In this document: piece after piece, positions 22,624-24,383 of the stretch | Position numbering within the stretch: position 1 is the stretch's first letter | How the letters are laid out: every line of letters starts with the position of its first letter | Source: Candidatus Rhabdochlamydia sp. | Lineage (GTDB): Bacteria > Chlamydiota > Chlamydiia > Chlamydiales > Rhabdochlamydiaceae | Reading direction: 5' to 3' | NCBI GenBank assembly: GCA_051648645.1 | Contig: JBOFFP010000010.1 | Location: forward strand, 74,021 to 138,020 | Length of the DNA stretch: 64,000 nt | Position numbers and translations under genes: made by a program | The notes under the pieces: model-generated | What the model saw: only the letters and a program-made list of their open reading frames with translations | The model's database searches: none | What the model was told of the DNA's origin: nothing

Positions 22624-22923
22624 ATGACTCAATCAATTAACAATCGAATACAGAATTTCTTTGTTAAATCTCATGTAAACACTCAAGATGAAATAGATGT
22701 AAATTTGCAAAAAATGGCTGAAAGCTTAGCACCTTTAAATCAACAGAATATGATGTATGATTCTAAGGATCAAGACGAGTATGTCATGATTCCTTTAAAC
22801 TTTAATTTTAATTTTGGTGGGCATTCTTTTACTGGAAAAGATAAATTATCTTTAAACGACAAAGCAGAACTCAAAACTTTTACCATAAAAGAATTATTGA
22901 CATATAGAGAAAATAAAATTTAG
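22624..22923 (+). CDS. Small protein, putative RiPP-type precursor peptide (99 aa)
   Basis: AAGGAAGGA RBS before ATG 22624; first gene of the cassette with the SdpA-like and HTTM genes; central PLNFNFNFGGH. Confidence 0.6.
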   Translation: MTQSINNRIQNFFVKSHVNTQDEIDVNLQKMAESLAPLNQQNMMYDSKDQDEYVMIPLNFNFNFGGHSFTGKDKLSLNDKAELKTFTIKELLTYRENKI

Positions 22924-22947
22924 CAATCTTTCTTTTTTTAAGAACAT

Positions 22948-22996
22948 CTAAAGCGCCTAAAATTTGTATTCTTATCGGAATTTTTAGGTGCTTTAG
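22948..22996 (+). terminator. Intergenic stem-loop between the precursor and the modification genes
   Basis: CTAAAGCGCCTAAAA (22948-22962) pairs with TTTTAGGTGCTTTAG (22982-22996), one G-U pair; short T run downstream. Confidence 0.7.
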
Positions 22997-23046
22997 GCAT
23001 TTTTCTATATTAATAATATATTGTTTAAGGATTGTTTTTTTTGAAT

Positions 23047-23580
23047 ATGAAACATTTATTGGAGCTTACAGTTGAGATCGGTTTATTCATATTATTTTTG
23101 GCAACCATCTTAAAAGAATTTGTAATGCAAAATTTCTTTCGCGAAAAACTTCCTCTACTAGGTTGTTTGTTGCCTTCATGGAGTTTTTTTGCTCCTACTC
23201 CCTATAAAACGGATTATTTTTTGTTTTATCGTTTTATTTATGAAGATGATCGTGTCGGAGAATGGAAACCGGTTAATAAAAATTTAGAAAAACGTCCTTG
23301 TTACTCTTTTCTATGGAATCCAGAAAGTAGGTTTCTAAAGGGATTTATAGATATTATCTCCGATCTAATAAAATGCGTACGTGTTATGGATAAAAATCAA
23401 ATATGCGCATCTATTCCCTATTTACATCTCTTACATTTTGTTCATTCTTTTCCTAGGGATTTGTTTGCTTCAAAATTACAATTTGTGGTTATCAGTCAAT
23501 CCAAATTATATAATAATAAACTAGTTTTTTTATCTGAAATACACCCATTTGAAAAAATATGCTACCACTCTTTAAATTAA
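23047..23580 (+). CDS. SdpA/CypL(LinL)/DUF5819-like protein
   Basis: One N-terminal TM, then LLPSWSFFAPTP..DY.L.YR, LWNP..R..K, Y..LL, QF; overlaps the HTTM gene start. Confidence 0.65.
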   Translation: MKHLLELTVEIGLFILFLATILKEFVMQNFFREKLPLLGCLLPSWSFFAPTPYKTDYFLFYRFIYEDDRVGEWKPVNKNLEKRPCYSFLWNPESRFLKGFIDIISDLIKCVRVMDKNQICASIPYLHLLHFVHSFPRDLFASKLQFVVISQSKLYNNKLVFLSEIHPFEKICYHSLN

Positions 23581-24383
23581 GTATTGAAACAGCCTACATC
23601 TATTCTTTAGGAGTTTTATCGATTGGTCTTATCATTTCTTCAATTGAAGATATTATAAGATGGCATGTGTTTGAAACCTCCGGAATTTTAAGCTGGCAAG
23701 TTTCGCGTTTAGCTCGTCAATGGACTGCAAAAGGATTAGTTGCAAAAATATTAAATATGTTTTTAAGAGATGCATCTTTTAAGGTTTGTATATATTTAAG
23801 GTTAATTATATCTGTTTTATTATTTATTTTTTGTTTATTTAATGCTATATCTACAGTTATCTTGTTTTTATCGTTTTTCTTGTTATTACTATATATGTTA
23901 AGAAGTCCATATGGACTTAGCGGCTCCTATCAAATGAGCATGGTTATTGTATTTTCTTTATTTGTAGGGAGCTTATTTGGAATCTATTCAAAAAGTTCCA
24001 TTTTTTGTATGTGGTTCATCTCCGGACAATTGCTTCTGTCCTACTTTATTGCTGGTATTAGAAAAGCCTTATCTCCGATATGGAGAAAAGGCGATGCTAT
24101 GCATGATATTTTTAGTACCTCTGCATTTGGCCATCCTCTTATTCATAAATTGATTCAAGTTAAAGGATTTGCATGTGCTTTAAGCTGGCTGGTGATTTTT
24201 TTTGAAATGTTATTTTTTATGATCTTGTTTATCGATCCGAAGTTCTTCACTCTTTTTTTTCTTGCAGGATTTTTATTTCATTTAGCTAATGCTTTTTTTA
24301 TGGGACTAAATAGCTTTTTATTTGCATTCCCTGCAACTTATCCAATTCTTTTCTATTGTATTCAATCCCAAAGACTACCTTAG
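23559..24383 (+). CDS. HTTM-domain membrane protein (SdpB/LinG/vitamin K-dependent carboxylase-like)
   Basis: Multi-TM; GSYQM, YFIAGIRK...W.KG, W..IFFE, FHLANAFFMGLNSF.FAF.ATYP. Confidence 0.75.
   Translation: MLPLFKLSIETAYIYSLGVLSIGLIISSIEDIIRWHVFETSGILSWQVSRLARQWTAKGLVAKILNMFLRDASFKVCIYLRLIISVLLFIFCLFNAISTVILFLSFFLLLLYMLRSPYGLSGSYQMSMVIVFSLFVGSLFGIYSKSSIFCMWFISGQLLLSYFIAGIRKALSPIWRKGDAMHDIFSTSAFGHPLIHKLIQVKGFACALSWLVIFFEMLFFMILFIDPKFFTLFFLAGFLFHLANAFFMGLNSFLFAFPATYPILFYCIQSQRLP

Follow-up and report, generated by a model that had tools for sequence, protein, structure and literature searches.

A Putative Split HTTM/GGCX-Fold Peptide-Modification Cassette in Candidatus Rhabdochlamydia and Its Relatives in Other Phyla

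What three adjacent genes of Candidatus Rhabdochlamydia do together is the question addressed here. They lie on contig JBOFFP010000010.1, within a stretch of 64,000 nt that was analyzed as a whole (the window, to whose positions coordinates refer unless another contig or locus is named), and encode a small protein of 99 amino acids (aa; orf99), a single-pass membrane protein (the partner), and a polytopic membrane protein of HTTM type. A description made from the DNA alone (the original prediction) had read them as a minimal peptide-modification cassette consisting of a precursor, an SdpA/CypL-like protein, and an HTTM enzyme. We hold with moderate confidence that they encode a minimal, GGCX-like split system of LinG/LinL (SdpB-like) type that modifies a peptide or protein, with the small protein as its probable target. 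Homology, gene linkage, a conserved motif, and the fold of the membrane protein carry this reading. The prediction is thus borne out as far as the conserved trio and its kinship with HTTM/GGCX and LinG/LinL proteins are concerned, while the modification itself, the small protein as its substrate, the chemistry (dehydration, epimerization, or carboxylation), the topology, and the biological role are what we infer from them.

A Conserved Small Gene Upstream of the Enzyme Pair

The partner gene is placed directly upstream of the HTTM gene in all nine chlamydial loci. Whether such pairs are accompanied by a conserved small open reading frame (ORF) was a test set in advance, and the outcome was positive. 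In 9/9 chlamydial loci, a co-oriented ORF of 93–281 aa lies directly upstream of the partner gene, and these ORFs share a C-terminal motif, a helix of the type L-x-[ST/D]-[IV]-x-E/Q-L-L-x-x-R-x-x-x-I (ELLxxRxxx-type). The same motif was found upstream of the partner gene in 15 of the 17 loci of seven other phyla in which the partner gene precedes the HTTM gene (partner-first). Because the same gene order, with homologues of all three, is seen again elsewhere, the three genes are considered real. Moreover, a hidden Markov model (HMM) built from 13 nonchlamydial C-termini placed chlamydial upstream ORFs at ranks 1–7 of 476 ORFs. A genome-wide hunt for orphan copies with a 24-column HMM of the C-terminal motif was powerless, orf99 itself reaching only E = 0.19 among 23,148 frames.

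The wider loci came from a contig scan with a degenerate DNA pattern of the partner signature PxWxFFAPxP, which gave at least 80 loci and whose taxon list is a sample; a single Tenacibaculum protein was also used as a query for related loci. A partner-family gene was present in 33 of the 80 loci listed (47 had no partner-family ORF at E < 1e-15), and 31 of these 33 genes adjoin an HTTM gene. In two Amycolatopsis loci (L065 and L075), a partner-family domain (~165 bits) ends open frames of 713 aa, with no HTTM gene in the fetched flanks; these could be a different architecture or an ORF-calling artifact in high-GC DNA. Among the matches listed, 16 loci, all from actinomycetes, had the HTTM gene first. 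All four of those tested with Pfam encode an alpha/beta hydrolase, fused to the HTTM domain in two and in the other two encoded by a separate gene between the HTTM and partner genes. The HTTM domains of the HTTM-first loci formed one clade (support 95/97), and those of the partner-first and chlamydial loci fell outside it.

The partner-first loci, which have no hydrolase, numbered 17 among the matches listed (counting the Tenacibaculum and G256 loci) and belonged to Bacteroidota, Acidobacteriota, Actinomycetota, Pseudomonadota (Nitrosospira), Planctomycetota, Myxococcota, and Eremiobacterota. Two of them were exceptions to the rule of the small gene: L093 was ambiguous, and L042 had a radical-SAM gene in place of the motif-bearing ORF. 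In L042 (Phycisphaerales), the radical-SAM protein is encoded at 2659–3855, upstream of the partner gene. Genes for DCC1-like proteins (L021, L034, and L099), an M23 metallopeptidase (L063), a methyltransferase (L029), and transposases or integrases were recurrent neighbors, and an F420H2-dependent quinone reductase is encoded beside the Nocardia locus. The system is sparse, occurring in 2 of 301 sampled Bacteroidota genomes. With the same trio in seven other phyla, the idea that it is peculiar to chlamydiae fails. RiPP-like clusters (for peptides that ribosomes make and that are modified after translation) are already known from other chlamydial families (PMC9666466).

In the family alignment of the small proteins, R95 is invariant and L91 and L92 are nearly so. 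The conserved motifs of orf99 lie at about residues 38–47 and 79–99, with a variable middle between them, and orf99 is 32% identical over 75 aa to the upstream ORF of its closest relative (E about 1e-6). Pfam and NCBIfam gave nothing above noise for orf99. In most relatives, an Ala/Val/Thr-rich hydrophobic segment precedes the C-terminal helix. Length ranges from 71 to 281 aa across the family, tandem copies lie upstream of the partner gene in L099 (Eremiobacterota, 1321–2334) and L063 (Bryobacterales), and a second motif-bearing copy lies 2.6 kb downstream of the cassette in L014 (G154:C20). The hairpin that had been noted behind orf99 is well formed (minimum free energy −29.8 kcal/mol, z = −3.7; an equally good fold in 0 of 200 shuffles), and a simple terminator scan made no call for it. 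Hairpins of unrelated sequence follow the small gene in three of five chlamydial relatives tested (z = −2.5, −2.9, and −3.6), and none was found behind it in the other two. Variable middles, tandem paralogues, and hairpins are habits of precursor genes, and orf99 is probably, on the sequence and the model described below, the substrate or a precursor.

The long forms of the family suggest another reading, which we regard as rather unlikely. The small protein would be a structural or regulatory subunit, and the HTTM enzyme would act on another protein, a lipid, or the envelope, where the M23 and DCC1-like proteins would also belong. These forms (258–281 aa, in four phyla) are homologous over most of their length (pairwise E 5e-35 to 4e-7) and consist of a conserved N-terminal domain of ~200 aa with a PYNGG-type motif, a transmembrane (TM)-like segment, and the C-terminal helix, a build closer to that of a membrane-anchored subunit than to that of a classical leader-core peptide. 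In NCBIfam comparisons, the M23 domains resemble peptidoglycan endopeptidases such as ShyA, ShyC, and MepM, all far below the cut-offs, and the co-fold speaks for binding only and not for turnover. A subunit, however, accords poorly with a protein whose length and middle vary so greatly while the docking motifs alone are kept, with the tandem paralogues in L099, L063, and L014, and with the hairpin 3' of the small gene in 4/6 chlamydial loci examined. Furthermore, the related SdpAB/YitPO and linaridin systems are described as acting on a co-encoded peptide (PMC6818787; 10.1101/2020.07.09.196543).

The Membrane Protein, Its Partner, and a Docking Model

The third gene had been described as encoding an overlapping multi-TM protein with HTTM motifs. 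Its start overlaps the end of the partner gene by 22 nt, and the motifs YFIAGIRK, WRKG, and FHLANAFFMGLNSF are present; K169, W175, R176, H241, N244, G249, L250, N251, and F253 are invariant in an alignment of 17 sequences. No Pfam family matched the window protein at E ≤ 1, and its sole match in NCBIfam was a subthreshold one to the SdpB subfamily TIGR04033 (E = 1.7e-4, residues 151–255), which the HTTM protein of the closest relative matched at E = 4.3e-7. The HTTM profile PF05090 was matched by 3 of the 17 aligned relatives (best 9.6e-12), and the Nocardia partner-first homologue scored 29.7 bits against a cut-off of 27.7. With phmmer, the window protein found 14 other chlamydia-type homologues and three PF05090-bearing proteins (E = 2.8e-17, 1.5e-14, and 5.3e-13).

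An AlphaFold model from the 17 sequences had a predicted local distance difference test score (pLDDT) of 88.6. Its top 15 Foldseek matches were all human GGCX (probability 0.99–1.00, query TM-score 0.51–0.61), at E-values (3.2e-3 to 0.32) that are weak in absolute terms, and the next were unrelated transporters at probability < 0.3; the HTTM-family profile found nothing at E ≤ 1 among PDB sequences. Based on the remote sequence links and the match of the model to human GGCX, the membrane protein is an HTTM/GGCX-fold protein. The HTTM assignment therefore stands by virtue of PF05090-bearing homologues, the fold, and the invariant motifs, and not through a direct Pfam HTTM match. The spacing of K169, W175, and F253 (6 and 84) equals that of Lys189, Trp195, and Phe273, residues that a preprint assigns to the menaquinol pocket predicted for a bacterial HTTM protein (10.64898/2026.08.19.745780), a correspondence of spacing and not of aligned residues. 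By the positive-inside rule, the K/R-rich loops 34–70 and 172–201 and all the conserved residues would face the cytoplasm, which would fit a substrate without a signal peptide.

The partner had been described as a single-TM protein with a W.FFAP.P motif, and its model (pLDDT 91.6) has a single N-terminal TM helix at residues 2–25, followed by an alpha/beta domain. The signature takes the form WSFFAPTP in the window, is shared throughout the family, and contains the invariant residues P43, W45, F47, F48, P50, and P52. A profile search of 1.84 billion representatives returned 1294 relatives at E ≤ 1e-3, of which 758 reached E ≤ 1e-10. Neither Pfam nor NCBIfam had a match at E ≤ 1 for the window partner or for nine close homologues, and the SdpA model of NCBIfam (E ≤ 0.1) was matched by none of 95 family members. 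DUF5819 (PF19136) was reached by 5 of 45 distant relatives and by 3 of 7 partners from other phyla, at 17–23 bits, below the cut-off of 27.1, and only in the PxWxFFAPxP region. In the Atlas, the nearest clusters were from Actinomycetota and Pseudomonadota and annotated "hypothetical protein," and one cluster at 0.82 had DUF5819 on 12% of its members. In the Foldseek and VIA-align results, no resemblance to the lumenal domain of GGCX was seen, a negative that leaves room for one. The family thus appears LinL-like by genomic context and weakly DUF5819-like. The label "SdpA/CypL-like" holds in part, for the LinL-type context, and not for SdpA, to which the scans gave no likeness.

The co-folding of the three proteins proposed earlier was carried out as a three-chain prediction, the HTTM protein, the partner, and orf99 each with its own custom alignment. 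The score for orf99 was 0.77 (0.76, 0.77, and 0.77 in the runs) versus 0.03 for the best control; the partner chain had a pLDDT of at least 52, and at least 65% of the contacts were common to the runs. On orf99, the contacts involve residues 79–99 (the conserved helix) and 25–47 (the second motif), and on the enzymes they involve partner residues 116–133 and 157–169 and HTTM loop residues 47–58. Swapping out the HTTM chain abolished the score. The model thus supports docking of orf99, with the small protein predicted to bind the enzyme pair via its C-terminal helix.

Several results weigh against this reading. Of 157 solved complexes, 116 attained the mark used for the co-fold, as did 2 of 215 mismatched pairs, counts that are only roughly valid here, as custom alignments and three chains lie outside the calibration; GGCX-propeptide complexes have already been solved, so part of the score may reflect likeness to them. 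The small protein of the window is among the weakest members of its family: it has no Ala/Val/Thr-rich segment, and its identity to the nearest homologue is only 32%, versus 64% in the case of the partner and 74% in that of the HTTM protein. It ranked 13 of 476 (E = 1.9) with the cross-phylum motif HMM, and the reverse test failed, as an HMM of the chlamydial C-termini did not rank the nonchlamydial ORFs first. The conserved ~200-aa domain seen in the long forms would suit a structural subunit no less than a precursor. The TIGR04033 score of the membrane protein, 21.3 bits, is far under the curated cut-off of 178.4, and the PF05090 profile had no match anywhere in the genome, even at E ≤ 10. 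As for the window partner, it had no DUF5819 match, and its model had no convincing match among solved structures (best Foldseek E = 0.24; best Z in a wide VIA-align search 4.0, with partial Ig-like or FnIII-like matches).

If the three genes nevertheless form a modification system, it would work as follows. The HTTM protein (274 aa) would form a membrane complex with the single-pass partner (177 aa), and the small protein would dock onto this complex by its ELLxxRxxx-type helix and by the second motif further upstream. Docking would present the variable stretch between the motifs, in most relatives the hydrophobic Ala/Val/Thr-rich segment, to an active site around K169, W175, H241, and F253. 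The window small protein keeps the docking motifs but has an atypical, nonhydrophobic middle. The cofactor may be a quinol. A MenA gene above the cut-off was found in the genome, and since MenA is present a naphthoquinone cofactor is plausible; MqnA/MqnD of the futalosine pathway (PF02621) were not found in this genome, which is 93% complete.

The Chlamydial Cassettes and the Reduced Copy in the Window

The HTTM gene was found in 8 of 201 genomes of the order, including the window genome and three of the four other genomes of its genus. An M23 metallopeptidase is fused or adjacent in seven of the eight other chlamydial loci, counting L012 (fragment only): it is membrane anchored, forms a C-terminal fusion with the HTTM protein in L011, L016, and L017, and is encoded convergently just downstream in L013, L014, and L015. 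Genes for a DCC1-like thiol-disulfide oxidoreductase (L015–L017) and a methyltransferase (L018) also lie downstream. In these relatives, the membrane-anchored M23 protein, often with the DCC1-like oxidoreductase, would complete the system, and the peptidase would presumably process the product.

In a maximum-likelihood tree, the window HTTM protein groups with those of L011, L016, and L017, all M23 fusions, and it ends exactly where these closest relatives run on into the TM-M23 peptidase. No M23 remnant was found 3' of the window gene. Considering the fused subclade, the exact end point, and the lack of a remnant, the missing protease is a secondary loss. The earlier statement that the cassette has no protease is therefore true for this copy, but its closest relatives carry an HTTM-fused M23 domain. 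Two intact stand-alone TM-M23 genes and one DCC1-like gene occur elsewhere in the genome. In a region of contig C5 (51305–53846), a stand-alone TM-M23 gene is 71% identical to the cassette-side gene of a same-genus genome, and three small paralogous ORFs (83–90 aa) come after it in tandem on its strand. Each combines a conserved N-terminus with a hydrophobic middle and ends in ~30 Cys-rich aa, and from their sequences they look like a family of secreted Cys-rich peptides.

No flanking gene is common to the window locus and the other chlamydial loci, and transposases flank several chlamydial copies. The TPR gene and birA, which bracket the cassette in the window, lie ~360 bp apart in G154, a genome of the same genus, with no cassette between them; the G154 cassettes sit elsewhere. 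The lack of common flanks, the empty site in G154, and the flanking transposases indicate that the cassette is a mobile accessory element, of which the window copy would have been inserted between the TPR gene and birA and would then have lost its M23 part. The cassette proteins share 74% (HTTM), 64% (partner), and 32% (small protein) identity with those of G154, versus 84% for BirA. The G154 homologue (G154:C12:68591–69512) of the window TPR gene (21046–21966) contains several in-frame stops and hence looks like a pseudogene.

Upstream of orf99, on the opposite strand, lies a fragment of a second HTTM gene. In the genome search it matched HTTM residues 220–270 with 61% identity and one TAA, and in tblastn it was 79% identical over 28 aa; it is most like the HTTM type of the closest relative. 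The fragment hints that the insertion site once underwent a duplication or rearrangement. Apart from it, no M23, DCC, or partner remnant was found in 21900–22700 or 24300–24600. With its M23 part lost, its core region atypical, and a pseudogene fragment upstream, the window copy is a reduced one.

Such a copy could be a decaying, functionless remnant, a mobile insertion that lost its peptidase and whose small ORF is degenerating. We think this improbable. The truncation relative to the other three members of the fused subclade without any M23 trace, the stop-bearing HTTM fragment, the empty site in G154, the atypical middle of the small ORF, and the low identities relative to BirA would all be expected of a remnant. 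All three ORFs, however, are intact, both enzymes retain every residue that is invariant in their families, and the cassette still has its ribosome-binding site, overlapping start, and hairpin. In the sister subclade, the natural form is a stand-alone HTTM protein of 276–279 aa, and the two intact TM-M23 genes present elsewhere in the genome might work in trans.

The features of the locus are listed in table 1. All that had been described for the three co-oriented, AT-rich genes at 22624–24383 was found, including the strong ribosome-binding site of the 99-aa ORF and the setting among accessory genes between nifU and birA: a NifU-like gene and an OprB porin gene lie further upstream, followed by the TPR gene, and birA lies beyond the cassette. 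GC content is 28% over 22200–24000, versus 35–40% in both flanks. A 144-aa multi-TM ORF without family match (20598–21032, + strand) lies between the OprB porin and TPR genes.

Table 1. Features of the cassette and its immediate surroundings in the window
Feature	Position	Strand	Description
Pseudogene fragment	22160-22306	-	C-terminal ~45 residues of a second HTTM paralogue; one in-frame TAA
Shine-Dalgarno-like AAGGAAGG	22612-22619	+	4 nt ahead of the orf99 ATG; seen in the sequence
orf99	22624-22923	+	Open reading frame, 99 aa; probable substrate or precursor
Stem-loop	22947-22997	+	16-bp stem, U-rich stretch after it; between orf99 and the partner gene
Partner	23047-23580	+	177 aa; alternative TTG start at 23032
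HTTM/GGCX-fold polytopic membrane protein, LinG/SdpB-like	23559-24383	+	274 aa

Comparison with Known Systems

HTTM-type maturation enzymes are reported to make the SDP and YIT toxins and the linaridins by chemistry that is still unexplained. The cassette is a tractable minimal form of such a system, with three genes, no hydrolase, and a short, predictable docking helix on the presumed substrate, and the trio also occurs in the culturable Tenacibaculum, Nocardia, Nitrosospira, Dokdonia, and Mucilaginibacter; given this minimal trio and these hosts, the chemistry of the enzyme is directly testable. The cassette ties maturation enzymology to the fold of the human vitamin-K carboxylase and supports the recent prediction, in a preprint, that bacterial HTTM proteins are split enzymes with a single-pass partner. 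For chlamydiae, it adds a mobile and sparse accessory system with a fused peptidase to a lineage thought poor in such functions. The family is of more interest than the copy in the window, which is reduced and perhaps not the best one for study.

As a tentative extension, which we rate as possible but on the doubtful side, the trio may be an undescribed, phylum-spanning class in which a hydrolase-less split GGCX-like enzyme, guided by a C-terminal "follower" helix, would carry out quinol-dependent chemistry on a hydrophobic core; in Rhabdochlamydiaceae, it would be coupled to a fused M23 peptidase and yield a membrane-active product directed at co-resident microbes or host membranes. In the literature covered, which left out most subscription journals, neither the hydrolase-less trio nor its C-terminal motif was found described. 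The candidate chemistries are, by analogy with what has been proposed for linaridins, dehydration or epimerization and, by analogy with GGCX and MloH, carboxylation.

The linaridin clusters, described as having a LinH/LinE-LinG plus LinL architecture (10.1101/2020.07.09.196543), are one point of comparison. Their core enzymes are LinG (the transmembrane domain of LinH/CypH; also LegG and CrdG) and LinL (CypL); CrdG has been described as an HTTM-domain protein, and the linaridin mechanism as unclear (PMC9927463; 10.1101/2020.07.09.196543). Profiles of the window family match the 16 listed HTTM-first actinomycete loci (HTTM E ~1e-24 to 1e-47, partner E ~1e-25 to 1e-34), and all four of these tested show LinH/LinE-LinG plus LinL, an identification by architecture and not by comparison with CypH/CypL. 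Like LinG/LinL, the pair is membrane bound and encoded beside a small peptide gene, and an M23 (PF01551) gene is reported from one nonactinomycete linaridin-like cluster (10.1101/2020.07.09.196543). Unlike the linaridin clusters, the cassette has no LinE alpha/beta hydrolase in 19000–28000, and no LinE-type hydrolase was found within ~3.5 kb of the pair in the ORF-listed chlamydial loci. The order is small ORF, partner, HTTM, in contrast to HTTM, hydrolase, partner in linaridin loci; the HTTM domains lie outside the linaridin-type clade (95/97); and the window cassette has no methyltransferase or decarboxylase. Recognition would be by a C-terminal helix instead of an N-terminal leader. A linaridin precursor has such a leader and a Thr-bearing core that gives dehydrobutyrine; the middles of the relatives are likewise Ala/Val/Thr-rich, whereas that of the window protein is not.

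In SdpABC and its paralogue YitPOM, an SdpB-type protein and a small partner are reported to mature the hydrophobic C-terminal part of a co-encoded protein into a toxin (PMC6818787). SdpAB-SdpC and YitPO-YitM thus have three components in common with the cassette: an SdpB-type protein that is polytopic, a small partner, and a third protein encoded with them. In the relatives, the third proteins likewise contain a hydrophobic segment close to the C-terminus, in many cases with Cys on its flanks. The cassette differs in its SdpB match far under the cut-off, the lack of an SdpA match for the partner or any of 95 family members, a third protein without a signal peptide (by inspection), another gene order, and the absence of SdpI/SdpR-type immunity genes.

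Heterodimers of HTTM and DUF5819 proteins that resemble GGCX have been predicted in bacteria by a preprint (10.64898/2026.08.19.745780). The cassette would share with GGCX the fold of the membrane domain and the invariant Lys, Trp, and Phe at equal spacing, and with the HTTM-DUF5819 pairs a split architecture, the extramembrane domain being contributed by a single-pass partner. DCC1-like partners link cassette relatives to the GGCX/MloH group, and the co-fold puts the helix of the small protein at the partner domain, much as the propeptide is clamped in GGCX. The partner relatives, however, reach DUF5819 only below threshold and the window partner not at all, the partner model has no match to the lumenal domain, and the conserved residues would lie at the cytoplasmic face, unlike the lumenal site of GGCX.

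These likenesses raise the possibility that the protein is a true vitamin-K-dependent gamma- or alpha-carboxylase, GGCX- or MloH-like, which would add CO2 to Glu or Asp of the small protein instead of dehydrating or epimerizing it. The fold match, the Lys, Trp, and Phe spaced as in the quinone pocket that was predicted, MenA, the DCC1-like redox partners of relatives together with the quinone reductase beside the Nocardia locus, and the acidic stretch in the middle of the window protein would all suit a carboxylase. We nevertheless give this little credence, because most middles in the family are Ala/Val/Thr-rich with few acidic residues, and because the same preprint reports a blocked substrate channel, and probably a different specificity, for the DUF5819 complex (10.64898/2026.08.19.745780). 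The likeliest reading is that the trio is a hydrolase-less system of LinG/LinL type that would modify a peptide or protein.

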